Assembly: GCA_964187785.1 (NCBI GenBank)
Contig: OZ076409.1
Span: 70,000,001-70,064,000 of the forward strand
Direction of reading: 5' to 3'
Length of the DNA: 64,000 nucleotides
Source: Amphiscolops sp. MND2022
Taxonomy: Eukaryota
The notes under the pieces were generated by a model. It saw only the letters and a program-made list of their open reading frames with translations, was not told the DNA's origin and searched no databases. The first letter of the stretch is position 1. Each line of letters begins with the position of its first letter. Both the position numbers and the translations under genes were made by a program. Below, in pieces: positions 2,098 through 64,000 of this stretch.

Positions 2098-2524
2098 AGC
2101 ATCTGGTCGCGCTGCGACACTAGATGCCATCGTATGGCTAAACTGTCGAATTTCAAGTTTTTGTTCGAAAGACCCGAAATCAAACTTCGAAAATGAATGC
2201 AAAATTGAATGCAACCTGTGGTCAAACTTAGCAAGCCAACACTGAGTTGAATCATTATTTGTTGGTATTCCTAATTGCATCAAGCATATGCAAGTGTTGG
2301 CTTGAAGTGCTATGGCCCTTTAGATTTAGTTTGTAAAAGTTACTGTTAATTTATTCACAATGCTGTAATCTTCTGTTGATAGCTTGATATAGTTCGTTTC
2401 CTGATTTGCTTCCGTTCATTCGAGGCAGAAAAGAAAGATTTTGAAAAATGAACTTCTCACACTGAAATCTTTGTGGCCAATTTTCTTTCTAACTCGAACC
2501 GGTAGTGCTTTTCAGATTTCTACC

Positions 2525-21853
<19,329 letters not shown>

Positions 21854-38726: not shown

Positions 38727-39860
38727 TGAGAGTCGAACTCACTTACTTCTCAAGTCCCCTTGCCAAGCCTAGAAATCCTCGTTAAGTAAGCAAGTAAGGT
38801 ACAAGTTTTACAAATGAATTTATAAAACTTATAGAAATGTATCCGTTTGCTGGCCTTAATAAAGTCACTACTATAGTCGGCTTAATCTAACGGAAAGCGC
38901 CGACTGATAATTAAAATATATCATTATTTTGACGAAGAATGCCAAACTGGAAAGCAGAGTTCGAAGCGGAAACATTTTACCTGTGTAAACATTTTACCTC
39001 GGCCGAATCTCAAGACATCAGAAGCAATGACTGTCCATGACCTAAAAGTGTAACCTCAAAGTCAGTTACTCTTTTTTTCACCAAAAATTAACACATGGAA
39101 TATACACATGAAAAATCGTCGAGAGAAAGAGTTTGATGCACTTACGGTTAAATCAATTTTAAAAACAGCCATAAACTTTCATAAAAGTTCATTTATAATG
39201 GAAACTTCCGAACTTGAAAGTTCAACCTCTTCAGTGGCGGAATGAGAAATGAAAGCGTTGTAAAAACGATTAATATAAGATTTAGATTAAATAATAAAAG
39301 GACCAGTAGCACTGCGAGAATTTTCTATGCTGTTTCAAGACCGCTTCAGGAAGAAATCAATTGTTTGATAAAGAAAAAAACGGACTAATTACAAATAAAA
39401 ATACCAAAAGACAATTTCATGTCTTTAGGGTTCCAAAACGGCAATTTCAGCATAAAATTTCACACTTTATCGCCTTGACAAAACCTAATAAAAACAGCAA
39501 TAATTCGGTATTATCATTATTTTCAATGAGAAACAAGCCGGAGCGACCCAAAAAGGCGCCCGCTTAGAGCAAAGTCTTTTTAAAATGAGATTGAAAAATA
39601 TTCAAAAAAATTATTGTGACTACCAAAAAATATCCAAAGAGGGCACCCTTGAAACACGAAAAGCGTTTTTACTGAGAACTGAAAAACTTGACTTTGTGGG
39701 AAACAAAATGGGATTAAGTCACACTGTGCAGAAAAAAACTCAAAGAAGGACTTTTGCTTTTTTACTTTTTCATTTTCTTGAGGGTACGAAAAATGATGAT
39801 TGTAGAAGACCCTGAATTCATTTATTCTCGGAAGAATGTAAAATCAAGATTTACAGAAAG

Positions 39861-42015
39861 TGTCACGACCCGCTCCCGGTCGGGATTTCACCTGCTGTGG
39901 GGGAATACCCAAATTCGCTAGAGGGAGAGGTCACGGAAGACCAGCGGGACACTAAAGTAACAAACACTTTTAAATCTTACCTTTATCTAAACCGCAGCAC
40001 GAGTTAAGTTAAGCGGAAATGTAACGTAAAATATCCAAAAATGTTTTCTGACAAATAGAATTTCCGGTCCAATGTTTTCACATGCAACAGTTTAATTTAC
40101 TTCCGGTTTAACTGTTGAAAATTCCATGACAACCTAAATACTAAAGATGAAAACATTCTTAACATTGGGATCAATTTTTCTCTTTTCCACACTAAAAAGA
40201 AAACATTAAAACATTATCCAATTCCGTGATCCCAACGGAACGCATACAATCTAAAATGAAAAGAACATAAAAACAGTTAAGAAGATTTGTTTTCAGAGTT
40301 TGAAGTAGTTGTAAAAAGTCACTCAAAATACAGTCAAGTAATTTGAATAAACCTTTACAACGTTATGACAGCGTCACTCAAATATCTAAGTTGCTGGTAT
40401 TTCTAACTTACGGACCAATAGCGTTGTAGCTAATACCAGCAAATTTGCGCTCAAGCTAGTTAGAACCATTCCTAATGACGTCATTAAGAATGAATTTAAA
40501 GATGGCGAATTACTCCGAGCTTGCTCCGCTAACAGCTAAGAAAGCTATACTCAATCTTAATATGTACAAAGTGCTTACGGAACAAATTGTAAGCCGAGAA
40601 AATTATAGCCAATCTTAATACGTAGGGAGCATTTACGGAGCGTTTACGGAGTGAATTGTGATAGGTGAAGTTATACCTAATGTTAATACATGTAAGACAA
40701 GCGTGGAAAATTCTAAAACTCAGAAGCTACCCAAACACATTAGGATGTTCCTGAGGTCATGTAGAATTATTTTGAGATATTTAGATTATCATAAGGCTTT
40801 ACTTTTTCCATCCGGATTCTCCCCGTTTAGTGATTAGATTAGAATGTTCGTGCTGTTAGTTAAGATAAAGGTAAATCACTTAATGAAGGAGCTTTGTATT
40901 ATATTTTCGCAAAAGAAGTCACCTAATTTTGCTACGTTGGTATAACGTTGCTGGATGTAATGCAATATTTTGTTATTTTGATTATTCGCTATAAAATCGA
41001 ATCATGTAAAATATTGTTAGATGTTTCTGTCATGTTGCCAGATATTCTTGTTTCTTCAATAATCAGAATTCTTGTTTATGTTTATCACTTTTTCGGCATC
41101 ACTTGTTCCTTGTCAATTATCTCACTTCATTAATCCGAAATTAGTCCGAGGTATTTCCGTAGCAAATTTTGCTTGTCATCATTTTTATAGCGAGTTGAAA
41201 ATTTCATCGCACGCAAACTGAATCATCGTTCACGCCAGCGTGCCTCTCGCGATGAAAATCTAACTAGACTTTTATTTTGCCGCCTTTTCCGTGATTAAAC
41301 CGGAAACGGGACGACTGAACAAAAATGATTTCAACAAGTACTCTGTAAGATTGCCGTAACTAGGAATTTTAAATTATGAACTATTAACTGAAAGGCTGAA
41401 ATGATATGAATGATTAAGCATTTTTTATGAACAAAACGGATTTTAGGGATTCCTAGGAATTTTTAGGTGAGGAACAAATGATGCTGAGAGGGTATATATA
41501 GTTAGAAATCTCATGTAAGAATCAATCAACCCTTTTGTTTCACTGCGATCAATTTTGTTCCGTTATAATAACGAAAACTCATTCTTCGACGAATTCAAAT
41601 ATTTTCCGAAGACCTTGTTCTTGAACTCTGAAAATGACTACTAGAAGCCAAAAGAGAAAAGCAGCTGAAGAGCTCATTTCAACTGAAATAGAAACCCCTC
41701 TACCCGAAAATACTACGGGCGAAAATCCTATAGTAGGTACAAGCAAATCTCCTAAAGTCACTACTGACAGTTTAGAGAATATAAAATCTGTACTGAGGAA
41801 AGAAATCATGTCTGATCTTACTAAAATCTTGGCTGAAAATCAAAAAGAAATGCTAAAACTAATAGCTCCTCCTGTTAAAAAGCAGACTGTCATAGCTGCT
41901 ACCGAAGAAACTGATTCTGAATCCGAAAACATCCCGGAAAATGCAACATCAACACCGATCAAAAATAAAACCACTGCGACTAATCGTAAAATCACCCCGG
42001 TAAATAGTCGTAACA
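39861..42015 (+). repeat. 5' LTR (2155 bp)
   Basis: TG...CA ends with an 8/9 terminal inverted repeat. Contains palindrome TAATGACGTCATTA (40473-40486), a TATA-like TATATATA at ~41493-41500 and the first 382 nt of gag. Confidence 0.97.
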
Positions 42016-43046
42016 TGGTGACAGGAGTCCTCAATGACTCAACGAACCTCGGAAAGAAGAAAACACGACCGCATCGCCCACAAAGTTTGCCACCCAACGA
42101 ACGTCCTTCGACATCACGACTACTCTTCGCTCCCCAACCGGAAATACACCAGCCGCCCCACCTACCCTCAATGCCCAAAGCACTCACTGCATCATTGCCT
42201 GTATTCGATGGTAAGTCAGAAAAATTCGAACTTTTCGAGGACTTATTCCGGAACAACATAAAAATGTACCCACATCTAACAGAAATCCAAAAAACCAACT
42301 ACTTCCATTCGCTACTACGAGGCAATGCACTACAAGCATATTGCAACTTAGACGATGCCAAAAAAGATAACTTAGAGGAGGTAATTACGGCGTTTAAACG
42401 GCGCTTCGGAGACTTTCAATCTTCTGCCAAAGCGAGATGCGAATGGGACTCGCTACATTTTGACCCAACCAAACAAAAATTACATGAATTTTTGGATACA
42501 CTGCAAAAAATGGCTAAAGAAGCGTTCGGCTCTGAAGCACAAAAATTTATAGACAAGGCCATATACGCCAAAATGCCGGACCACGTCAAAAAGATTCTTA
42601 ACCGAGCCTACCTCGAGGACAAACCCTATAACGATATTGTCCTACATCTCGAACGAGAGATGCGCCTTAATGGCCTGGGCGCCCCAGACGAAACAATACT
42701 AGTTCCACTAAACACGGTTGACGTCGCTCCCCCGGAACCGAAAAAAGAGCCCACCCAACGAGGAAACTGCTTCCACTGTGGCAAATACGGCCACTACAAA
42801 GCCCAATGTAGAAAACTCCGCAAAGAACGCTACTACGAGACTAAGGCGCAAAACGGTGCTACCAATACAAATGACCCGCCCAAACCTAAATGTGACACAT
42901 GTGGAAAACTTCACAAAACTGAAAACTGCTGGTACGGAGCTAATGCGGCAAATGACCCCAGAAAGAAACGACATGAATTTGCCATACCTACCAGCCAAAT
43001 CAGTGAACAACCGATCCCCACTGTCGAAATTCAGCCAAAAAACTAA
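41634..43046 (+). CDS. gag: Gag, 470 aa
   Basis: LPVFDGKSEKFELFEDLF capsid-like region; CFHCGKYGHYKAQC knuckle plus a variant CDTCGKLHKTENC. Confidence 0.92.
   Translation: MTTRSQKRKAAEELISTEIETPLPENTTGENPIVGTSKSPKVTTDSLENIKSVLRKEIMSDLTKILAENQKEMLKLIAPPVKKQTVIAATEETDSESENIPENATSTPIKNKTTATNRKITPVNSRNMVTGVLNDSTNLGKKKTRPHRPQSLPPNERPSTSRLLFAPQPEIHQPPHLPSMPKALTASLPVFDGKSEKFELFEDLFRNNIKMYPHLTEIQKTNYFHSLLRGNALQAYCNLDDAKKDNLEEVITAFKRRFGDFQSSAKARCEWDSLHFDPTKQKLHEFLDTLQKMAKEAFGSEAQKFIDKAIYAKMPDHVKKILNRAYLEDKPYNDIVLHLEREMRLNGLGAPDETILVPLNTVDVAPPEPKKEPTQRGNCFHCGKYGHYKAQCRKLRKERYYETKAQNGATNTNDPPKPKCDTCGKLHKTENCWYGANAANDPRKKRHEFAIPTSQISEQPIPTVEIQPKN
42016..42028 (+). promoter_or_regulatory. Primer-binding site, possibly tRNA-Leu
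   Basis: TGGTGACAGGAGT directly follows the LTR-terminal CA and differs at one position from the remembered tRNA-Leu PBS TGGTGTCAGGAGT. tRNA identity unverified. Confidence 0.7.
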
Positions 43047-43080
43047 AAACGCCGCGCCTCCGCTTCGGGGAAACGGTAGA
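43037..43080 (+). promoter_or_regulatory. Predicted -1 ribosomal frameshift site (A AAA AAC plus downstream stem-loop)
   Basis: Heptamer at 43037-43043 lies just before the gag TAA. The -1 frame is open from there into pol. GC-rich GCCG..CTCCG-CTT-CGGGG..CGGT hairpin starts 7 nt downstream. Confidence 0.8.
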
Positions 43081-46000
43081 CGCAAGGGCGTACACAATAG
43101 AAGACCCCCCAAATCGCTACGAAGAAGACTTCATGACCGAATGCAACGAAGAACCGACACAGGATTGGCAACGTCGTTGGAACGTCGGCATGATACTTAG
43201 ACACAATGCACGACACCCAGAAGACCCAACACCACTACCCCAATGGATAACAGAATCACCCGATAACTACGCGACACTAAAAAGACCCTTACCAGAATCA
43301 AAGACCGAACGCATTTACATATATGATAGAGACTATAGATGTGATCCTTGGGATGAACCAACCATCTATGACACAAACAAACTCTCTTTTAAGATCCAGG
43401 TTTCAAATCCTCAAGCTCAAGTCACCGAGAGTACAACCCTACCAACACCTTTGTCACCAATCCTAAAAAAGACAACACAGTCCTCGCCAACACCCGTCAC
43501 CACCACGTCCACACCAATAGATGCAGAGAATATTATCTGCATTGAGGATAAAACAATATGGTCACAACAAGCAAAAGAACAACGCGGAGTAGCCGATCAA
43601 ACAGTATCACCCCCAACAACAGCATCCGAATTGGCAACCCAGAACAACAATCATGAAGACGACGAAGTAACGGAATGCCCACAACAACTGCCATACGATC
43701 TCAACATCATAAAAGAATTCATACAACATGATAAAGACGACGACTACATTCCGTTAATGTCGGCAATTACCCTCAAAAAGAAGAAAAGAATGCTCTTTAT
43801 TCCTCTCGACTTTGAAAACACTAGAATTGATGCATTAGTCGACTCGGGAGCCTACATCAACGTCATCAGCGAAAGAGACGCAGACAAGATACAAACTGAA
43901 GCCAACGCAACCATAATCGCGAAGGCACCTCCACCCCCTTTCAAGATACAATATGCCAACACAGAACTCGAAAAAGCCCGTGCAACATACACAATGCAGT
44001 TCAAAATCGGTAACTACGCGTTCGAGGAGACTTTCATCACCATGACCAAAACATCTTACCCAATCATCGGCCTGGCATTCCTCCGGAAACATTCCGCAAT
44101 CCTAGATACCGCACAAGGAACAATAGACTTTCCTAAAATACAAATCACTCTAGCCCTAAAAGATGAAAGACAAAAGTGCAACCCCAAACCCATCACTATC
44201 AAGACGGAAGAAAAACACACCATACCAGCCCAAGCCACACGGATCATCCACGCTTCCATCACCACAAGCAATGACCACTCAATAACTGGGACAGTCCAAC
44301 CTTTGCCACAGTTCGACGAAAATGCAAAACTCATAGTAGCCCCAGCAATAACAACAGCCCGAGACAAACGAGTCGCGATAAAAATAGCGAACACCACAGA
44401 CTTCCCCTACACAGTAACGCCACATACGAAACTAGCAGAATTACAAATACTGAAACCCGAAGAAACGAAATTGATACGAGCAGTAGACATAGCAGCCCTC
44501 AATCTACTCACCGAACACGACGATGTTGTTGCGTACGTTAATGCACTGATGCAAGTTGATTCGTCAGAACAAACAGAAGAGAAATTCTGGTTCCCAACTC
44601 CCGAAAATCCCGGAGATGAATCGGAACACACACCCATCCAACAACGCATTCTACGAGAACTACGCGAACTACAAAGATTAGAAGAACTGGACCCCAAACA
44701 AGACGAAAAATCCAGAACACAATTCCTCTCGCTATTCAAATAGAATAATTCACTCATAACGGGAGAAGACCGTGAAAACCTAGAGTCCACCCTAGTCGAA
44801 TTCAATGACATTTTTGCACGTCACCGACTGGACATCGGAATGAACAACCAGTTCAAGGTATGCCTAACTCCCAAAAACGACAAACCGGTATATACACAGA
44901 GTCTCCCTGTACCCATCAACCTCAAAGACGACCTCACAGTAGAATTGGCACTGATGCACAAATACGGGATCATCACAACCCTCCCATTCTCGAAATATGC
45001 CAGCCCCATCTTCGCGCAACGCAAACCCAACGGCAAACTACGGCTCCTAGTGGACTTACGGAAGATCAACGCCCTCATCTCAGATGACTACATAAACAAC
45101 AACCACCCCATCAGCACCCTCTCAGATGCCGCACAACACCTAGCGGGGAAGCAGCTGTTCTGCAAACTAGATTGATCACAAGCCTATCACTGCCTCCAAA
45201 TGGCAGATCAAAGGTCAGTAGAACTCCTTGCATTTAATTTTGCTAGTAGAACGTTTGCCTATCGTAGGCTAGCCCAAGGACTTAGTAGAGCCTTGTCAGC
45301 CTTTTCGAGCTTCATGCGGGAATATCTTGACACCGTCATCAAAGCAGACCAGTGTGCCCAATACGTGGACGACATTGGAATCGCCGCCAACACAACGGAA
45401 CAACTCATTAAGAACATCAGAGCAGTCTTCAAATGCATCCGCAAGGCAGGAGTAAAACTCACAATTGAAAAATGCCACTTCGGTGTCACCCAAATCGAAT
45501 TCCTGGGAAGAACCATCACACCTCACGGAGTAGCACCGCAAGACCACAAAATCACCAGTTTCTTGTCAAAAATCAGATTTCCCCGGTCAAAGAAACAAGT
45601 CCAGAAATACATTGGATTCATCAACTACTACAGAAACTACATACCAAGACTGTCCGAAAAAATGATTGGAATGTACGAACTCCTAAAAGCAGATGCCAAA
45701 ATCACCATAACTGAAGAACTAGTCGACAACTTCAAAGCGATTAACGCGAGCCTAGCGGAAGCCTGCGGAATTGCACTCAGACAGCCGATTGCAGGAAAAC
45801 AATATGTACTGATGACGGATGCTAGCTTCCGAGCATCCGGATATGCGCTCATGATCGAAGAAAACGACGACAAAAAACTACTCTCCAAAAGAAAAACCTT
45901 CGCCCCTGTAGCTTTCGGATCACGCGTGTTCTCTCCGTCACAACTGAAGATGTCGATATACTGTAAAGAATTCCTCGCAATATATCATGCATTCCTTGAA

Positions 46001-48252
46001 TATAGTCACATTCTCTGGGAAACAACACTACCTACACTAGTACTGACAGACAACAGATCAGTAACGAGATTTTTCCAGACGAAAACAACGCCACCCGCTC
46101 TCTGGAATGCCTGCGACTATGTACTCCAGTTCAAATTCCGCATCATGCACGTAGCTGGCTCGCAAAATACAGCAGCCGACTTCCTGTCTCGCCTCGAATT
46201 AACTCCAAAAGAGAGAATCCAAATCAAATTGCGAGACGACATCATAACGGCACCTATCGAGGTTAACCTACAGTCTACAGATGTTGCAGACGAAGAACAA
46301 CTCTTTTTCCTGCCAAACGAAGAAGAGGAATCAGAACAAGAAATTTTCGCCAGGAAAGCCCTTAGCAAACAACGAGCAATAGACGAAAAGGAACAACAAA
46401 ACTTAACAACGGAAGTCACAGAAACAGTGCACATACCTCTCAACTCAGCAGTATACGCCTTTGGAGCCATCAAGGAAAACGCCCGCATCCGCAACGAACA
46501 GGACTCGGACCCGATATTGAAAGCATTGAAACTACGGCTGCTTCACGAAGAGTACGACAAACACCTTCTCAAGACCGAATCCAGAGGACGAAACCTACTA
46601 CGTCACGAAGAAAGAATAATAGTCAAAGACGGAGTACTCATGCGTAAATACTACGGAGAAGATGGCACAGTAACACATCACCAAATCCTCATACCGAAAC
46701 ACATAGTACCAGAACTCCTATCGACGCTACATGGAAAAATGAACAAACACCCAGGAATAACCAAAATGATTCAGGAAAGCCGAGCAAAGTACTACTATCC
46801 GGGACTAGCGCGGACAATTAGAGCCTGGGTAATCAACTGCCCAGATTGCATAGCCAACAAACGAATCGACACGCGCCAAATACGTCCTAAAATGCTGAGT
46901 AATACAGAATTCACATTCGGACCAGAAGATTGTCTAGAAGTCGATATTCTACCCAATCTACCCTCATCAAATGGCTACAAACACATCATAACCATGATGG
47001 ACGTTTTCTCCCGTTATTTGTTCGCATACCCCACTCAAGACATGACTGCCAGAACAGTCGGACGATGCATAATTGACGTTATGACACGTCACTGTTATCT
47101 GCCTACAGTGATTCTGACTGATAAAGGATCACAATTCCGATCAGATGTCGTGAACCAAATAGCACAAACACTAGACATACGGATTAGCCACGCATCGACG
47201 AAACATGCACAAACGATTGGAATACTCGAGAGAACGCATGCATCCCTAAAGACTTCCCTCAAAATATCAACGGGAGAACGCCGTTCGATGTGGCACAAAT
47301 ACGTACAAATCGCAGTAATGAACTACAACACTAGTTACCACGAAAGCCTAGGATAAAACCAACAACCGTATTTCACGGACGCATTCCGTACAACATTCTG
47401 GATATCAAGCTGGGACTCAAGCCAGAATGGAAAAAAGACGCTAACGAAGACCTTACGGACGAATTACAAAAGCAAATCGCTGAAATCCACCAGTCAGCCA
47501 AGGACAACCTCATGCAATCATATTTGAAGTATAAGCGATATCATGATAAAAAAGCGACAGCAACGCCATTGAAAATCAATGACTATTGCTACGTCCTGAA
47601 CCCGAAGGCTGTTAACCAGTCAATGAAATTCGCTTTCAAAGATTGCATTTGGACAGGACCATATATAGTGGTCAAAGTCCTTTCCAATAACAATTACGTC
47701 GTAAGACGGACGGGAACAAGATATACGCAAACCCTCCATAGAATTCGCCTAAGGCTATACGCGCCCAATCAACGAGTACCTGACGTAACAGTCAAAGTGG
47801 AAGATCAACTTCCAGATCCCGAGGTTAAAACAACCCATGATGATTGGTACGCGCAAGATTGGGAAACCGAATTCGGAGAAGTTCTGTTCGGCAACTCATC
47901 GGAAAGAGAAAATGAAGAAGCTAACATCACAGAGCTGCCAGCGGAAGACGCAAATACAACGGAGCAAGAAACAGTTATAACAACTGCAGACGAAACTTCA
48001 ATAGCAGAACAAATTCCACCCGGAAATGAAACGTCGCTCAACCTAGATGTCAGCGATAACCCTTTCATAATGACCCCACCGCCTACGGAAAGCCCTCCCA
48101 TACCGCCTACACTCCCGCCTATAGTTGTCGGATACAACCCGAGAAAAGCAGGAAGATACAACTTACGTCCTAACCCTAAACCTAATGCACATCCCGATTT
48201 CCGGATGCTTGATGCAGTCACAACAGAAGAAATACCTCAAACTCAATATTGA
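43043..48252 (+). pseudogene. pol: pol (protease, RT, RNase H, integrase with GPY/F motif), disrupted
   Basis: LVDSGA, QYVDD, MTDAS, HHCC zinc finger, ILTDKGSQF, WTGPY. In-frame stops at 44741-44743 (TAG) and 45173-45175 (TGA), plus a stop and 1-nt frameshift at ~47354-47358. Confidence 0.93.
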
Positions 48253-48425
48253 ATGAAAACACTCAACGGGCTGAACCGAACCGGAGTAGCTACGTTAAAT
48301 TTTTGCATCAGATCTCTAAAACTACGTAAAACAAAAGAAAGCTACGCATTAGCCAAAGATACAACAGCAGATAAAACAATATACAAAGGAAACTATCCAT
48401 CGATGAAATAGCATCACAGTTTACA

Positions 48426-51400
48426 TCACTTATAAGAAGGCTTTTTCAATTTATGGACTACGTCCGGATCTTTATCATCCTTCTTGCTCCCTTTCTTCGG
48501 CTTCTTCACTCCTCTGGCACCACCCTTCTGCGGTACTACAGACACTTCACGTGTCGGCTTAGGTCTCTTCGCATCAGAAGTGGTCGCAGCACTCTTTCCA
48601 ATAGATAAACCACAAGAAAGCTTAGATGACCCCGAACGCCCACTCCCAGCATCACTACCAGCAGTTCTAGTACATTGGTCCATACGAGCCAGCCGGTTGG
48701 TCTTATTACAATCAACATAATGCGCCTCGTACTCTTTCCGGCGCTGCAACAACAATTTGTGACACGACTCATTGTGGGAAGAAACAAACGAGTCATACGT
48801 TGGGCCCACGAAATCCTTCCACAAATTGATCTCACCACACACAAAGAAAACCCCAGCTTCATCTACAGCGGCTCGAACTGCATCCATAGTCTGACCGGTG
48901 AAGAAACGTTGATGACAGTAACCAGGACTTAACACATATGACTGCACCAACTTGATACAATTCTGCAACGCGTCCTCACGCAGTGAACTACCACTGAGGC
49001 TGATAGATACAGATGGATAAACCACATCCAGGGTCTCGATCGTCAAACAACAGAGCTTAAAGATACGCATCAAACGCTCTCGAGACTGAAAACTAAAATC
49101 GCCCAACAAATACTCCACTATATCTTTGACACTGCTAGCAGACTGCCCGGAACTACGGTGCTGACCCCGCCTCTCAATCACAGAACTGCTAAACTCGTCC
49201 ACAGCACAGCGGGACTCCTCAGCAGTTATCAAATTACACGTCTTCAATAAACGGCACAAATCTGCAAACAAGGCAAATACACCATGGTCGTCGCCTTCGA
49301 ACAAGATCTCAGGGCAGAAACTGTATAGACAACGTGACACTCCCGATGTCACACTCACACTACCAACAATCACGACGATCAACCTGTCCAGAAACTGTCG
49401 ACATCGTGAACGAAACTCTGGCAGCTCTCCGGTCGTTCTAACCATCAAAGTTTTTCCGAAGTCATCATTTGCCAAGAAAGCGTCTGGAGCCACTACGGGA
49501 AAAGATGAAATCGCCTCACCCGACATATATTTTTCCCACTCGTGAATGCCCGGAAGAGTTCCAACAGCGCGAGTCTTCAGCAAAAGGCAATACACGAAAT
49601 TACAGAGCTCTCCGTATGAATGAAAACTGTAATCTCTACGGCTCTGTCGCAACTTCGTGAAATTGTTATAGACTAAAACACAAATGACACTAACCAACTG
49701 CTACGACTCCAAGACATACTCACAATTCAACGAAAACGCAAAGGCTACAAGAACAATCCATCAGGTGAATCTTCAGTCAACACAAGCACAATCAATCATC
49801 ACGAATATCAAACGGAACTCAACAGCCCTTACTCACATGTATCAAGTATCAGACGTGAAAGCCCGAGACGATGAAAAAACATCTCATCAGCAATGATGTT
49901 CCAATCAGTGCCTCTCAGCTAAAAACAACAAAATCACCGCCATCAAAATAACGAAACACACAATACCAAGAGAATTTATGAATATCCAGCTTACTTTATC
50001 AGCAGTATCTTTAGCATGAGGAAGCCCGGTACAACGAATATACGGCTTTATCGATGACCACAGCTCGATCAACTCGCACACTAAATCGCGAAGATCTTCA
50101 AAAGCCACAACTCCTTTGCTGATACACCGGCGCAAGACAACCTTATCCTCCGTCCACTCCTCGTACATGGCACTCTTCATCCGAACCACAATGTATTCAA
50201 CCAATGTGACCAACTCCACCATCCCGAACACATCCTGATGCGCTTGGCGAAAGCACTGGAGAAAGACATCGCTGCTGAAAGTGGACACAACCACAAATTG
50301 GCGATTATCGGCCCGGCTTTCACACAGCTCTCGGAATAACAACGGACTACAACCACGGATCGAAATTGGCAGAGGCCCATCAGTCAAACTACACAGGACC
50401 CGAGCAAGAGGAACCAACTCAGCATCAGGGAATTTCTGGTCCAACGGCTGTTGATCCACGCAGATCCTTTTGAAATTCTCATCCTCCCAGTAGACTACGT
50501 AGCAACACTCGAGATCATCGCGCTTTACAAACTCCACACTGTATTCACGTGACAAAGACACATTGCCCAGAACGGCACGCAATACCCGCGGAGCGAGACC
50601 CTGACAAAGGAGGGCCTAAAACACATACCAAATAAGCCAATTTGCTGATACAAACACTAAAGCAGTCAGTCATACAATCAGAGGAAAGATAAAAATACAA
50701 AACGAAACAACCATATACCAGAATATATATGGTATACCATATACCATATACCAACCAAAATACAGTCTACGAAACAACCATAAACCAGACTAACCACAGT
50801 CTCAGAGCGGCTCCAATTCATCGAGAATTGGGGCTCCCGGAAGCCCAACGAAGACGTGAAGTGGCCCCAGAGATGTCGCAACAAGACAAAGTCGCCACCC
50901 CTGCCAACCAGTTCACAAACACTTGACACTAGGGTCATCAAAGGCACTTTTGAGTTTGGATGTGAATGCTTCAACAAATCCTCAGGGAAAGGAAATTCCA
51001 CACCAAGATCTTCAAAAGGCCACGCACGATAGTCAGCCAACTGTGTCTCGGTGAGAATCATTGGCTCCAGAATCTTGTTATACACAGGCAGATCCATATG
51101 TACCCTGTACGTAACATCACGCCGCCAATGTCCAACTGACCCGAAATGACGGATGATCTCGGACACCCCGTGAGCACGTATGGCAACGTCTCGCTTGCAC
51201 ATCCGACAGAAGAAGTACTCATCTGACCCACTTTTGGCACCAGTCACGAAGTCATTGAATGTAGGATGTTCGCCAAGCATCCGTCGACTCAGAAGATTCC
51301 GCTTACTGTACTTGCGCTTCTTAGGACTCAACTTTGCGGACAGATCCCGAAATCCTATAACAACACCATGAAAAATATCAAGTAAAGGCCACCACCATAG

Positions 51401-52396
51401 AGATAACTAATACTACACAACGCCCACCATACAATAAGAAGAACTTACCACTTTGGATAGCCTCAGAAGTGCGTGTTTCCACCTCGTTCACTAACTGGCG
51501 ACCCAATGCTACCCAATCCTGCGGCCCAAACGTAAAACCTCCGGTGTCATCTTGACCTATCAATACACAATCATAAACAATAAGAGAAAAAAAACACCTC
51601 TCCCCCATTACACAAATACAAAGGCCAACTAACTCAACCACTCCTTCAGATCCGCAGCCAGTTCAACGCCAAAAGAACTCTCCTCCACTCTCTTGGCACA
51701 CGTAGGACTGACTCCAAAGCTAACGGACATACCCCGTGATACACCAGCCTTCCCTGCAAACGACACCCAAAGCGTAAAAACCACCCACCACAAAACAAAC
51801 ACCAAGAAAATTATATCAACCATGTTAACCTTTCTTCCTGGCGGGGGTAACAGTCCCACCTCCATGGGACTCAATACTGGAATCATCCCCATCCGAATCA
51901 TCGTCGGAGTCTCCAGCATCTACTGTAGGCACACTTTTGGACCCACTAGCCTCACCCTCAGGAGGGAGAACATTTACTGCCGGAGAAGATGCAAGTTCAG
52001 CCTGTCCGAGAGTAGACGTTAATATGTCGTTGATAACAGCATTGGGAATAACAGGCAAGATAGAGGAAACTGCGGGCAACAATGATCCAGAACAAGACGT
52101 CACTACTGCGGTAGTTGCAGAAGCAGCAACAACAGACGTTGTATCAGGTTGAGCTACTGAAAATCAGAATCTGGATTCAGACGCGTCAGAGTTACGGGTA
52201 GGACTATAAAGGCTGATCACCAAAATAACAAGTCCCAATACCCATGGAAATCAGAAAGATTTTACCAACCTGAAGTAGCCCGAACAAACTCTATGTCAGA
52301 CACGCCCAATTCGCACTCAGAATGTCCATAAACCGTTTCGTTCCCACTGATGAAACCACCAGGTGGAATGGGGGGACGCACACTTTCTTCATCCAT
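48426..52396 (-). CDS. Antisense 8-exon accessory gene inside the Gypsy element; 1063-aa hAT-transposase-like protein with zinc finger, predicted catalytically inactive
   Basis: Minus-strand exons 52396-52270, 52156-51830, 51753-51634, 51556-51449, 51354-50795, 50615-49995, 49918-49837, 49672-48426 total 3192 nt. All seven introns are GT-AG (76-179 nt) and phase-compatible, joining separate track ORFs into one stop-free frame. Contains SPKKRK NLS and a CRMC...H-x5-H finger. Confidence 0.8.
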
Positions 52397-52857
52397 GATT
52401 CAACGGCAATCTAAAAATAAAAAGAAACGATCAGGAAAGAGAAGATTACGCGAGGTGAACGCAAACCCCCTAAAGGAACGAAACGTCCCCAAAATCCTAC
52501 GGGCGAATCAAAACCTACAAGGAGATCCTCAAAAGACTTAAAGAAAAATCATTTGGAAATTACGAAGTATAAACGTAGTTCCCCTAAAGAAGCATCAATG
52601 ACGTCATACGGACAATCTACGGAAAAGAATTGGTGACGCCATGATGAAGTTCAAAATTAGAAACTTTATTTATATCGGTTCAGCCAATCACAGCGCAGAT
52701 GGAAACGAAACGTTTCCGAAGAAAAACGAACCGGAATAAAAGAAAAATAACAGCCAATAGGAATGCAGGAAAATTACAAACGAAAAGAAAATTGACCTTT
52801 TCATTTGCTGCATCCCAAACGTGAAGTTAAGTTAGCTGAAATCTTCAGAATTCAAAA
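52397..52857. promoter_or_regulatory. Candidate bidirectional internal promoter
   Basis: TGACGTCA at 52599-52606, ATTGG at 52629-52633, CAGCCAAT at 52681-52688 and 52751-52758, lying between divergent start codons 52396(-) and 52858(+). Confidence 0.5.
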
Positions 52858-53586
52858 ATGAGCAATTACGAACTCGTAATTGATATCTCTTCTGATGAAG
52901 AAGAAAACGAAGTCAGGCAAAGCACACCCATCAAAACCCTTCCACTAAATGGGATCACAGTTCTGAACCTCTCCGAAGCCTCCTTAGAAGCTACAAAAGG
53001 CAGCGCAGAAGAGATGATGGACTCTATCAATAGTCTAAATTTATCCGGCATCTCAGCGTCTACGTTTGAGACTATCGGTTCACCAAGAAAAATAAACTTC
53101 GGCACTACAAGCCCTGGAGAAGCTTTCATAGTGGAAGGGCATAGTACTGAAACGTCTGAAGAAAGCTACTTTGAAGAGCCGGATACTCCCCGTCAACTAC
53201 CGCCGCTGCAGCCCGCCCCAGTGTTACGAGACGTGTCTAATAAAGAGCTTCAGTACAACGGACCGCCTGCAAAAGCCGACAAACTCGACGACTTGATGGA
53301 GTCAGCAGTAGAAGAAATCGAAAACGCATACGGCATAGATCTACAAAGCAGACTAGAATACAGCCCGTTGTGCGGACGTGGGACGAGATTCACCTCAGCC
53401 AGGCTGGTAAGGACGCGTAAGCAACCCGTGCTCATCACGAGAGAGATTCCTAATTGCCCCAGACCGTGGGAAACAGGCTATAGAGGCGCCCTGTCACGAC
53501 CCGCACCCGGTCGGGATTTCACCTGCTGTGGGGGAATACCCAAATTCGCTAGAGGGAGAGGTCACGGAAGACCAGCGGGACACTAA
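52858..53586 (+). CDS. Accessory ORF of unknown function, 242 aa, acidic and Ser/Thr-rich, running 95 nt into the 3' LTR
   Basis: Intact ORF with AAAAATGA start context and N-terminal LVIDISSDEEE. No signal peptide or TM helix apparent. Confidence 0.65.
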   Translation: MSNYELVIDISSDEEENEVRQSTPIKTLPLNGITVLNLSEASLEATKGSAEEMMDSINSLNLSGISASTFETIGSPRKINFGTTSPGEAFIVEGHSTETSEESYFEEPDTPRQLPPLQPAPVLRDVSNKELQYNGPPAKADKLDDLMESAVEEIENAYGIDLQSRLEYSPLCGRGTRFTSARLVRTRKQPVLITREIPNCPRPWETGYRGALSRPAPGRDFTCCGGIPKFARGRGHGRPAGH

Positions 53587-55641
53587 AGTAACAAACACTT
53601 TTAAATCTTACTTTTATCTAAACCGCAGCACGAGTTAAGTTAAGCGGAAATGTAACGTAAAATATCCAAAAATGTTTTCTGACAAATAGAATTTCCGGTC
53701 CAATGTTTTCACATGCAACAGTTTAATTTACTTCCGGTTTAACTGTTGAAAATTCCATGACAATCTAAATACTAAAGATGAAAACATTCTTAACATTGGG
53801 ATCAATTTTTCTCCTTTCCACACTAAAAAGAAAACATTAAAACATTATCCAATTCCGTGATCCCAACGGAACGCATACAATCTAAAATGAAAAGAACATA
53901 AAAACAGTTAAGAAGATTTGTTTTCAGAGTTTGAAGTAGTTGTAAAAAGTCACTCAAAATACAGTCAAGTAATTTGAATAAACCTTTACAACGTTATGAC
54001 AGCGTCACTCAAATATCTAAGTTGCTGGTATTTCTAACTTACGGACCAATAGCGTTGTAGCTAATACCAGCAAATTTGCGCTCAAGCTAGTTAGAACCAT
54101 TCCTAATGACGTCATTAAGAATGAATTTAAAGATGGCGAATTACTCCGAGCTTGCTCCGCTAACAGCTAAGAAAGCTATACTCAATCTTAATATGTACAA
54201 AGTGCTTACGGAACAAATTGTAAGCCGAGAAAATTATAGCCAATCTTAATACGTAGGGAGCATTTACGGAGCGTTTACGGAGTGAATTGTGATAGGTGAA
54301 GTTATACCTAATGTTAATACATGTAAGACAAGCGTGGAAAATTCTAAAACTCAGAAGCTACCCAAATACATTAGGATGTTCCTGAGGTCATGTAGAATTA
54401 TTTTGAGATATTTAGATTGTCATAAGGCTTTACTTTTTCCATCCGGATTCTCCCCGTTTAGTGATTAGAATGTTCGTGCTGTTAGTTAAGATAAAGGTAA
54501 ATCACTTAATGAAGGAGCTTTGTATTATATTTTCGCAAAAGAAGTCACCTAATTTTGCTACGTTGGTATAACGTTGCTGGATGTAATGCAATATTTTGTT
54601 ATTTTGATTATTCGCTATAAAATCGAATCATGTAAAATATTGTTAGATGTTTCTGTCATGTTGCCAGATATTCTTGTTTCTTCAATAATCAGAATTCTTG
54701 TTTATGTTTATCACTTTTTCGGCATCACTTGTTCCTTGTCAAATATCTCACTTCATTAATCCGAAATTAGTCCGAGGTATTTCCGTAGCAAATTTTGCTT
54801 GTCATCATTTTTATAGCGAGTTGAAAATTTCATCGCACGCAAACTGAATCATCGTTCACGCCAGCGTGCCTCTCGCGATGAAAATCTAACTAGACTTTTA
54901 TTTTGCCGCCTTTTCCGTGATTAAACCGGAAACGGGACGACTGAACAAAAATGATTTCAACAAGTACTCTGTAAGATTGCCGTAACTAGGAATTTTAAAT
55001 TATGAACAATTAACTGAAAGGCTGAAATGATATGAATGATTAAGCATTTTTTATGAACAAAACGGATTTTAGGGATTCCTAGGAATTTTTAGGTGAGGAA
55101 CAAATGATGCTGAGAGGGTATATATAGTTAGAAATCTCATGTAAGAATCAATCAACCCTTTTGTTTCACTGCGATCAATTTTGTTCCGTTATAATAACGA
55201 AAACTCATTCTTCGACGAATTCAAATATTTTCCGAAGACCTTGTTCTTGAACTCTGAAAATGACTACTAGAAGCCAAAAGAGAAAAGCAGCTGAAGAGCT
55301 CATTTCAACTGAAATAGAAACCCCTCTACCCGAAAATACTACGGGCGAAAATCCTATAGTAGGTACAAGCAAATCTCCTAAAGTCACTACTGACAGTTTA
55401 GAGAATATAAAATCTGTACTGAGGAAAGAAATCATGTCTGATCTTACTAAAATCTTGGCTGAAAATCAAAAAGAAATGCTAAAACTAATAGCTCCTCCTG
55501 TTAAAAAGCAGACTGTCATAGCTGCTACCGAAGAAACTGATTCTGAATCCGAAAACATCCCGGAAAATGCAACATCAACACCGATCAAAAATAAAACCAC
55601 TGCGACTAATCGTAAAATCACCCCGGTAAATAGTCGTAACA
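53492..55641 (+). repeat. 3' LTR (2150 bp)
   Basis: Matches the 5' LTR. By eye, 8 substitutions and one 5-bp indel (about 99.6% identity). Confidence 0.97.
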
Positions 55642-55889
55642 GAAAGTTGTGCAGTGCCACTTTGCTTCTTTTTTAAAGCACGCTAAGTTTACTATCACCC
55701 TGAAAATTGTTCTCAGTAACCGCAGAATTGCGTGGGTTCAATAGGTAAGTTTCAAAATGTACTGAGAAGAAATTTTTAATTATGATCTTTAATTATCATC
55801 TCATTCAGTGCTATAACATTGTTGCAATAAATTTTGTTCATTGTATAATCTATAAATTCCTTCCACAAGGTATTGGATGTGAAGTGTCT

Positions 55890-60242: not shown

Positions 60243-63200
60243 TCATTCAGGAATGGGAAGGACGGGAGAGAGCTTGACGATGGGACGGGTGAGGTTACCA
60301 GATGATGTCTTTACTTCCGCTGACCGAGCGACGGAATCGGCGCCGTAGTTTAACTTGACCACACAGGCCAGTGGATAGTGTCCTCTCGGTGTGGTGGGCT
60401 CCACTATCCAGACTAGATCTCCCGTCTTGAGTTCGCGGTCAGAGGGAGTCATCCATTTAGAACGGCGGTTGAGAGTCGGAACGTACTCCTTAAGCCATCG
60501 GTTCCAAATTGCGTCTGAATACGCTTGAGCTCGAAGGTACCGCTTTCGATGATCTATTTCAGCCTGAAAAAGGGTCGGTAATGTAGAAATAGGAGTTCCC
60601 AACAAGAAATGGTTCGGTGTAAGTGCATCCAGGTCCGAAGCATCAGTGCTTGCGGCAGTTATTGGTCGAGCATTGAGGCATTGTTCCACAAGGCAGAACG
60701 TTGTCGACAAAATTTCGTCGGTCAGGCGGCGGTTCCCCAATACCGCGTAAAAAACGTGTTTGAAACTACGGACTACGCGTTCCCAGACACCTCCATGGTG
60801 GGGACCACTCGGTGGGTTAAACTTCCACTTAATTCGTTTCTTCAAGAGTGCGTCGTTGAGGACTTGCTGGTTCCAATTGTTGATGTTGTACATGAGTCCT
60901 TTTTCGCTGGCTACGAAGTTTGTGCCGTTGTCAGACCAAATTACGGATGGGGTGCCCCGGTGGGCGCAAAACCTTTCAATCCCCATCACGCAGCTACTCG
61001 TGTCCATGCTCGGGACCACCTCGAAGTGGACAGCACGAGTCGTGAGGCAGGTAAAAAGAAAGCCCCATCTTTTCTCCGTAGATCGTTTGACCGATACAAA
61101 GAAAGGTCCGAAATATTCAATTCCCGTGTTCGAAAACGGGGTTCTTTGAAAGCGAGTCTTTCACGAGTAGATCTGACATCATGGGAGTCAATGTTTCGGC
61201 TCTTCGTTTTCGACAGGTTACGCATCGGGAAACAATTGTTCTCAGGGTGGTTCTCAGTTTGACTACAGCAAATCTCTGCTGCACCAAAGCTCGTAGGTAG
61301 TCGACACCCTGGTGGTAATGGCTTTTGTGCAGATGCTCTAGAAGAAGCTGCACCAATGGATGACGACCATCTAGAACAAAGGGATGTTTAACATCAAATG
61401 TGGCAACGTTTAGTTGTTTCGTGCGCCCAGAAGCTCTTATCAGACCATTCGGTCCAATGAAGCGGGAAAATTGCGCTATTTTGGAGGTTCTGTTGAGTGG
61501 CGAGGATTTCAGTAGATTAATTTTCTCTGAAGGAAATGATTCGGATTGGGCGCTATGAAACAGTCGTTGTTCGGCATGTTCCAGTTCCGCCGGGTCGGTG
61601 ATTGCAGCAGAAGAGCACCTGTAGAAGCAGTTCTTTTTCAATAGTCGTAACATGTAGGCTACAATGCGCAGGAGTTTCTCGTATGAGCAATACTTCTGCC
61701 ACTCGAAAGTTTGTGCAATTGTAGACTGAGTTGTGGATACCATCACAGTTGCCGATTCTGTTACTGGTGACGGACTGGAATCTTTTGGCTTCTTTAGCTT
61801 CCATCGGAAGTCTTCGGATAGCTCAAAGGGCCATTGGGGCGTTTTCAGGAACTCAGGTCCTTTCAACCAACTGCTCTCCACTAGAGCGTTTGCTGACAGA
61901 CCTCTGGTGCCTGCATCTGCTGGGTTATTGCTCGATTGAACGTAATTCCACTCATCTGTCGTAGTTAGCTCCAAGATCTCCGCCACACGGTTATCTACGA
62001 AGACTGGTTGCTTTTCGAGGGAGTGAGTCCATTGTAGGACAGTGGTGCTGTCGGACCACATGGAAGTCCTGCTTATGTCGAGCGTCAGAGCCTTTTGGAC
62101 GTCCTTCCTTAGTCTTGCTGCAAGCAACGAGGCTTGGAGCTCGAGTTTTGGTATGGTCAAGGCTTTCATGGGAGCCACTCTGGCTTTTCCAAACACGAAT
62201 GCGAGTTTTGTTTGCGGGCAACTGTTTCCACTGATAACGTTTCCTCGGAGGAAGACGACCGCACTGAACACTTCTTGTGAACTATCACCAAAGATGTGAA
62301 GTTCTAGTGCTTCGACTTTTCCTTGGAAGTAGGTTCGCGCGATTGCGATGTCACTAAGCGCTGGTAACTCTTGGGTCCAGTCGATGAACTTGGTTACAAT
62401 ATCTGGCGGTAAGTCGTCATCCCACTGCTGCCCACTTAGTTTCCAGATATCTTTGAGTAGCAGGCGCGCTTTGACAGTATACGGTGCAAGTAGCCCAATG
62501 GGATCGTATACTGAAGAGACAAGGCTCAGAACTACCCTTTGTGTAACAGCTGGTTTGATATCAGGGTTTGTACCGCGGCTGACTACAAGGGTATCGGTAG
62601 CGTGGTTCCATTTCAACTCAAGCACATGGGACAATTCTTCACCACTAGGGAATTCTTTCACTTCGGTTGCTGGCGTCGGATCGGTTTCCAGTTGCGCAGG
62701 GATTGATGGTACGTTTGACACGAACTTGGTTAACTTGAAGCCTCCCAGCGAAAGCAGTTTCACCAGGTCCTCAGCTTTGCGTGTCGCTTCTTCAACCGTC
62801 GGGCACGACTCTAGGTAGTCATCCATGTAAAAATTACTGAGAACACGTTGAGCGGCTTCCGGGAACGTTGACTGGTTGTCCGTTGCTGTTCTCCTCAAAG
62901 CATAGTTCGCACAAGTGGGGGAGTCTTTAGATCCAAAGATATGACGGACATAATGGAACACAGCAACATCGGATGCTGGATCTTCGCGCCACAGGAAACG
63001 AAGTGACGGCCTGTCTTCTGGAATTACTCCAACTTGTAGGAACATTCCTTCAATGTCTGCCGACACGGCATACGGGTATTGTCGGAATCGAATCAAAATG
63101 TGGATGAGACTCTGCAACAGGTCTGGTCCAGTCAAGAGTGAATTGTTCGAGGAATGGCCTTGGAACTTGGCGGCGCCGTTCAACACTCGTCGAACTTTAC

Positions 63201-64000
63201 CCGGTTTGTGTGGATCAACGACCGGATGGTGCGGAAGCTACCACTCGCGGGCATTACTCACTTTGAAACAATCGGCTTTGTTAACGTTCACTATGTAACC
63301 TTTGGAGTGATCTTCATGGATGGTTTTGGAGTATCGCTCTTTCAACTCAGCATCTTTCCCGAGACGACGTTCCAGGGACTTCAGCTGGACTAGAGCCGAA
63401 AAGTAGTTATTCGGCAAACTACTCTCGTCCTCAGCCCATAGCATACCCACTTGGTATTGCGACTCATCGTGGTATGTCGTTCGTTCAAGTAACTTTTCCG
63501 CTCTCGCGTCGGCAGTGGAACGGGGGTCTACTTGTTTGAATGCTCCGTATGATTCCATTTCATACCAGCTGCGGAGTTGGTCGCCTAGTTCGGAATCGGC
63601 ATCTTTGTTGGACGTGACAGCCTTGAAACACGTTGAAAACAATCCAGAGGTCGATGGAAGAGGTCCACTCAGTACCCAGCCCAACGGGAGACGGACGGCA
63701 ACTGGAGCTTTCTTACTGTCGGATTCGAAGTACTCCAGTGGGAGGATAAAGTGAAACACGTCCTGACCCAGGATCATGTCGACGTCAGCGTAGCTGTATT
63801 TGTTCAAAGATATTGGTTCTAGGTGAGGATACTTGGTTTTCAGGTGGTCAACTTCGATGGTGTCGGTACGCTAAGGTTTTCTCTCACGTATGGTTTGATG
63901 GCAAAGGTTGAGCAAGAGCCACTCGAATGAACGGGTGTCAACTTGAGCTCGACCATTTGCGTTTCAACAACTTGATGGGAGTTGATCCCATGTACGGTCA
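60243..64000 (-). mobile_element. BEL/Pao LTR retrotransposon pol (PR-RT-RH-IN), disrupted, running off the window end
   Basis: ILGQD, LLTGPDL, ADIEGMFLQV, FYMDDYL, IFGDSS, TIPKLELQA, NPADAGTRG, WSDNGTNF, LTPNHFL. Stop at 63238-63240 and frameshifts near 61140-61170. Confidence 0.93.

Follow-up and report, generated by a model that had tools for sequence, protein, structure and literature searches.

An antisense gene and a second extra frame follow pol in a Gypsy-type element

The window analysed here, a 64,000-nt stretch of the Amphiscolops sp. MND2022 genome (contig OZ076409.1, positions 70,000,001 to 70,064,000), contains a 15.8-kb long terminal repeat (LTR) retrotransposon in which pol is followed by a gene of eight predicted exons on the opposite strand and by a second, sense open reading frame, ORF4 (Table 1). 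We confirmed that this element is one copy of a large, deep and divergent lineage with a conserved antisense gene. These two genes almost fill the 5.2 kb between pol and the 3′ LTR (hereafter the cargo), where the initial annotation had placed two genes other than env.

The boundaries bear out the reading of the element as a single insertion: the target-site duplication (TSD) GAAAG, 5 bp long, lies on both sides, the LTRs have TG...CA termini and a sequence resembling a primer-binding site (PBS) starts at 42016. The two LTRs are 99.4% identical, differing by eight substitutions and one 5-nt indel. As first described, pol and the antisense gene converge with 173 nt between their stops, at 48252 and 48426; a motif at 48273 in this gap is kept in 21 of 21 copies. 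Both inner LTR ends overlap coding sequence, again as described: ORF4 extends 95 nt into the 3′ LTR, and the gag start at 41634 sits 127 codons inside the 5′ LTR, so that the final 382 nt of this repeat code for the N-terminus of Gag, with the frame running on across the PBS. Every 3′ LTR and solo LTR thus bears a Gag N-terminus, and clades of 56–76% pol identity show the same arrangement. The gag frame terminates on A AAA AAC, which we take to be a slippery site, upstream of a pol in the −1 frame.

The window pol is interrupted at three points, twice by an in-frame stop and once by a frameshift, and ten compared copies have none of these lesions. Elsewhere in the lineage, two loci (L011 and L013) have a mosaic pol when set against window positions 42020-48200, 99% identical to that of the window in RNase H–integrase and 80–88% in protease and reverse transcriptase (RT); two related pol proteins (P0084 and P0122) bear a precomputed PF00692 dUTPase domain; and internal tandem duplications of pol and cargo, of 4.5 kb and 1.8 kb, are found each in a single copy, L021 (L021+L022 positions 2285-11363) and L047.

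The termini, TSD and PBS-like sequence, with the order protease, RT, RNase H, integrase, are those of Ty3/Gypsy elements, and the best solved relative is Ty3 (149.9 bits, and 99 for the RT stretch; foamy virus RT, 98). In a quick tree, a branch of 3.26 separated 23 rows of the lineage from nine other Gypsy-like rows (24–30% identity), which suggests a long-branched lineage of Ty3/Gypsy type. Troyka membership was considered and rejected, the available part of the source giving Troyka a 3-bp TSD and CG...CG termini (PMC12440569).

Table 1 Features of the element in the window (positions count from the first letter of the window)
Feature	Position	Strand	Remarks
5′ TSD	39856..39860	none	GAAAG
5′ LTR	39861..42015	+	2155 nt, TG...CA termini
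gag	41634..43046	+	Pfam: DUF1759, E 3e-9; weak Retrotrans_gag and zinc knuckle
PBS-like	42016..42033	+	TGGTGACAGGAG; within gag frame; most compared copies start alike
pol	43007..48252	+	protease, RT, RNase H, integrase in order
Gap between convergent stops	48253..48425	none	173 nt
Antisense gene, predicted 8 exons	52396-48426	-	1,063 aa; stop-free joined model
Antisense exons 1–4 region	51449..52396	-	acidic Ser/Thr-rich N-terminus
Antisense exon 1	52396-52270	-	
Antisense exon 2	52156-51830	-	
Antisense exon 3	51753-51634	-	
Antisense exon 4	51556-51449	-	
Antisense exon 5	50795..51354	-	C2H2 finger CxxC-x16-H-x5-H
Antisense exon 6	49995..50615	-	helix, three-strand hairpin sheet, helices (low-confidence model)
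Antisense exon 7	49837..49918	-	
Antisense exon 8	48426..49672	-	helical core and basic tail
Intron 1 of antisense gene	52157..52269	none	113-nt conserved non-coding island
Spacer between antisense and ORF4 start codons	52397..52857	none	461 nt
ORF4	52858..53586	+	242 aa; last 95 nt inside 3′ LTR
3′ LTR	53492..55641	+	2150 nt, TG...CA termini
3′ TSD	55642..55646	none	GAAAG

The antisense gene is conserved across the lineage

We annotated 36 further loci: antisense proteins served to choose 18 of them, pol alone eight, and cargo DNA and the ORF4 end five each. Where the initial annotation had raised the alternative that most copies lack the segment at 48.3–53.5 kb, we found an antisense homologue after pol in all 37 loci, window included, over pol identities to the window of 42–100% (42–98% for the other 36). 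It is present in 8/8 loci chosen by pol alone, a set that samples pol families other than the window's own, and each of the 23 loci chosen by cargo or antisense similarity has a pol upstream. In the clade at 42% pol identity the evidence for the gene consists of four ordered frames, which match segments of the locus itself at E values of 2e-7 to 4e-3. The position of ORF4 is occupied by an ORF in 33/37 loci, and in neither L083 nor three loci of the 42% clade. In that most distant clade (L121-L126, about 18.9 kb), the antisense gene is kept, some 2.6 kb of non-coding sequence follows pol and no ORF4 of at least 90 aa was found.

The lineage is abundant. The 5.2-kb segment had 1,532 candidates, and the 40 that were scored included 14 near-full matches at 93–100% identity and six at 76–77%; exon 8 had 6,971 candidates, of which 110 were scored, at 40–100% identity and mostly as open frames. 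Database clusters are of the same order of size: two pol clusters together count 1,131 members, and 63 exon-8 clusters about 630. LTR pairs are 96–100% identical in the 33 copies measured, indicating that many lineages inserted recently. Beyond this genome the matches are unnamed proteins only, with best identities to the genome copies of 53% or 39%.

The predicted exons and a probable intron loss point to splicing

The predicted antisense protein begins with an acidic stretch rich in Ser and Thr, followed by a C2H2 finger; some 700 residues of folded-type sequence come next, and the tail is basic (lysine plus arginine, 26%); the zinc ligands C, C, H and H are present in 19, 18, 19 and 19 of 19 rows, respectively. 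The GT and AG borders of introns 1, 4, 5, 6 and 7 are conserved in 20–21 of 21 copies, those of introns 2 and 3 being less certain because divergent copies align poorly there. Among 13 divergent copies, exons 5–8 are 53–61% identical, as against 25–36% for introns 2–7.

When 1.84 billion representatives were searched by profile, 477 matched the antisense protein (150 listed). Among the matches listed, P0258 is a single, intron-free frame of 890 aa that is collinear with exons 5–8 across their junctions (E 1e-102), and all 51 genome matches to it that were scored are single frames of 862–918 aa. In the RT tree this intron-free sub-clade nests within clades that bear introns and in which the frames are interrupted at matching positions. 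Intron loss is the simplest account of this nesting and requires a spliced RNA, which implies that the antisense gene is probably spliced.

Both extra genes are under purifying selection

We estimated ratios of nonsynonymous to synonymous substitution (dN/dS) by NG86 for pairs with dS of 0.1–1.5, which are not independent of one another; copies that had stops or were poorly covered were left out. Median dN/dS was 0.04 for both RT (99 pairs) and integrase (70 pairs), 0.06 for antisense exon 5 (11 pairs), 0.16 for exon 6 (8 pairs, highest 0.63), 0.09 for exon 8 (12 pairs, highest 0.69) and 0.14 for ORF4 (42 pairs, highest 0.97). Alternative frames contained stops and had no selection signal, save an expected echo in one opposite frame. 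The antisense gene and ORF4 are thus shown to be under purifying selection.

The suggestion that this layout marks a long-evolved lineage and not a chance capture is upheld by its presence in every locus, by the selection on both extra genes and by trees that agree on the deep clades (below). That the antisense gene is a functionless passenger, caught by chance from the host or from a nested transposon, accords with the stops or frameshifts in individual copies (all of exons 5–8 are open in 10/21) and is extremely improbable, being contradicted by the strong purifying selection, the kept splice sites and the gene's presence at 42% pol identity. No free-standing copy appeared among the 23 loci chosen by the gene. 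Like the initial annotation, we found no terminal inverted repeats (TIRs) or TSDs around the cargo: one 11-nt inverted match flanks it in the window copy, without a TSD, and is absent in the other 20 copies.

Antisense alleles are shuffled among pol backbones

Trees of RT and of the antisense gene from 26 copies (the latter by a quick method) concur on three deep clades. Within the youngest clade, two pol groups are dispersed over the antisense tree, and an AU test rejected the tree that keeps pol group A together (p-AU 3.6e-49). At least seven deep antisense allele lineages, at about 42–60% protein identity, occur in 18 elements of this clade, and copies whose RNase H–integrase DNA is 99% identical to that of the window have antisense exons just 58–64% identical to it. 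The swapped block spans from just past pol to an allele boundary near 52650-52700. These results show that the antisense cassette has been shuffled between otherwise near-identical pol backbones.

The pattern may stem from selection on alleles, or from pol backbones sweeping across old lineages. A selfish exclusion or addiction module, whose alleles repress or poison competitors or cells without them and are kept numerous by frequency-dependent selection, would fit the number of deep alleles, most of which sit in insertions with LTRs 98–99.9% alike; we consider it improbable, since sweeping pol backbones would produce this pattern even if the alleles were not selected, and no toxic or enzymatic domain was found. 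The same exchange bears on a role as integration helper or tether, in which the protein would steer the integrase complex to chromatin sites by reusing a transposase-like DNA-binding body. The zinc finger, the basic tail and the hAT-type neighbours described below speak for such a tether, to which we give little credence: alleles at 42–60% identity pair freely with near-identical integrases, and TSDs differ among the annotated copies, with no common target site seen.

A conserved intronic island, a predicted promoter and ORF4

No other part of the cargo is as conserved as intron 1, a non-coding island 79% identical among 13 divergent copies, above every exon. It contains the palindrome GACGCGTC in 11/12 copies and is present in 23/23 elements of the youngest clade. 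Such conservation raises the alternative that the antisense protein acts on RNA, in the manner of Rev or of CERV from Cer1, exporting or packaging genomic RNA, perhaps through this island; CERV, a spliced nuclear accessory protein required for export, provides a precedent (PMC10309623, available in part). This route is unlikely, given that the island folds no more stably than shuffled sequence (z −0.9 and −1.2), with no covariation, and was found in none of 14 deeper-clade elements that retain the gene. It had no match in Rfam.

The spacer between the two start codons is predicted to be a bidirectional promoter. A CCAAT box at 52682 is present in 19/21 copies in aligned columns and in 13/21 by a cruder scan. 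The ORF4 protein is acidic, then basic, and its N-terminal hydrophobic-acidic motif resembles a SUMO-interacting motif. An env identity was rejected: ORF4 has no transmembrane stretch (highest 19-residue hydropathy 0.77) and no Pfam match, so the element does not classify as an env-bearing LTR element.

A candidate anti-silencing factor of possible hAT origin

We favour the reading that the antisense product is a nuclear zinc-finger protein, lineage-old and spliced, that binds element DNA or chromatin against host silencing, and put its probability at roughly 55%. The lineage would have had the gene already when its pol genes began to diverge towards 42% identity. Transcription would start in the internal spacer, and the spliced message would encode a protein that probably attaches to DNA or chromatin of the element itself and keeps up expression despite silencing. 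Introns lying opposite to the genomic RNA persist through LTR replication, and the backwards orientation thereby lets them survive in the sense genomic RNA. ORF4, likely expressed from the other side of the spacer, would supply a disordered acidic protein, probably a co-factor. The antisense cassette would pass as a unit from one pol backbone to another when reverse transcription switches templates between RNAs packaged together. The regulatory role proposed for both genes draws on composition and the zinc finger; transcription, splicing, localization, function and origin of the antisense gene are likewise inferred from sequence.

Several results weigh against this reading. Pfam recognised no functional domain in the antisense protein, and the element contains no tandem target array. 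ORF4 is missing from the most distant clade, and BLAST found no similarity between deeper ORF4s and that of the window. In L021, U3 and ORF4 are 97–98% window-like and the antisense allele is different; as alleles are not tied to particular LTR types and the intron-1 island is common to all alleles of the youngest clade, a lock-and-key model of allele and target is weakened.

The folded core has about an even chance of deriving from a hAT transposase. Its motif order, judged by eye, recalls these enzymes and their dead derivatives (DUF4371, ZBED5/FAM200 and ZNF862 types), which have a similarly spaced C2H2 finger, helices, three-strand sheet and helical region. In a language-model atlas the named neighbours of P0258 are of hAT type, 8/10 in one clan, at scores of 0.79–0.82 where the line is 0.9. 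Against this origin, profile–profile comparison with hAT families gave best E values of 0.05–0.19, no better than shuffles, a test of low power given that a true divergent hAT subtype reached only E 0.004, and an unbiased tiling test gave p 0.50. PDB and fold searches with the antisense protein returned no match, and Pfam matches to its finger were sub-threshold and to non-BED fingers. The protein also differs from hAT transposases in its extra C-terminal 150 aa, and a hAT transposon around the gene was rejected, with neither TIRs nor an 8-bp TSD there. At the two sites of the DDE triad that could be placed by eye, Asp was seen in 0/19 rows; if hAT-derived, the enzyme would be catalytically dead. 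The fuller scenario is less likely than not: an inverted, intron-bearing hAT transposase would have lost its catalytic residues and settled as a permanent accessory gene in thousands of Gypsy elements, its anciently diverged alleles exchanged in an arms race against silencing and ORF4 its SUMO-binding partner.

Other features of the window

A composite repeat containing GGGGGACCCTTT units is scattered over 1072-59066 in at least nine occurrences, and the element is inserted beside one of them. Beside this repeat, an intron-free frame at 1699-2094 presumably encodes histone H2A; minus-strand frames at 60246-63870 have motifs that we take to be those of BEL/Pao pol. A perfect 87-nt inverted repeat lies at 8145-8319, its arms 1 nt apart.

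Relation to known systems and significance

Antisense accessory genes after pol are already known from the plant elements Retand, Grande and RIRE2 and from Boty of fungi, their origin and function being open (PMC7264820), and these are closer precedents than the complex retroviruses of which the initial annotation was reminded. In plant Tat/Retand elements they comprise Grande gene23, RIRE2 and Retand ORF4/TRP28 (PMC7264820; PMC11963269, available in part), gene23 being nuclear with its own promoter (PMC7264820). The aORF-3R layout of those elements recurs here in 37/37 loci, 8/8 among those picked by pol alone. What differs here is the size of the gene (1,063 aa), its eight predicted exons, the second sense ORF reaching into the 3′ LTR, the exchange of deep alleles among pol backbones and an unrelated RT lineage; identity with the Retand TRP28 protein was rejected, the antisense protein having no match to TRP28 (PF04195) or another Pfam domain, and no tandem array is present. 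The brtn gene of Botrytis Boty/BcGypsy1, an antisense additional ORF (PMC7264820; 10.1101/2021.04.13.439636, available in part), is similar by description in following pol in a non-plant Gypsy element; that element is fungal, and the available text describes no second ORF or allele exchange.

Other precedents come from sources available in part. CERV of C. elegans Cer1 is also a non-env accessory protein, spliced and nuclear, with a demonstrated role in RNA export, whereas the gene here lies antisense downstream of pol and encodes a zinc finger (PMC10309623). VANC of Arabidopsis VANDAL, a transposon-encoded accessory factor varying between related families, is a precedent for family-specific anti-silencing; it belongs to a DNA transposon and needs tandem target motifs, of which there are none here, and we found no homology to it (PMC6719617). 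Bdelloid rotifer LTR elements, likewise of animals, share non-env extra ORFs among lineages, but their ORF3s are env-like or GDSL or DEDDy enzymes, to which there is no Pfam match here (PMC5408684). In the literature covered, which excluded subscription journals, Dfam, Repbase and GyDB, we found no report of this lineage or of a hAT-derived gene fixed in Gypsy elements.

In this single genome, one antisense accessory gene can be traced across a whole lineage, through intron loss, strong selection and allele swapping, and the swapping among recently inserted copies makes allele-matched function tests possible. If the hAT origin is true, such an antisense accessory gene gains a source; if the anti-silencing role is true, it would extend to retrotransposons a strategy whose best demonstration comes from a plant DNA transposon.

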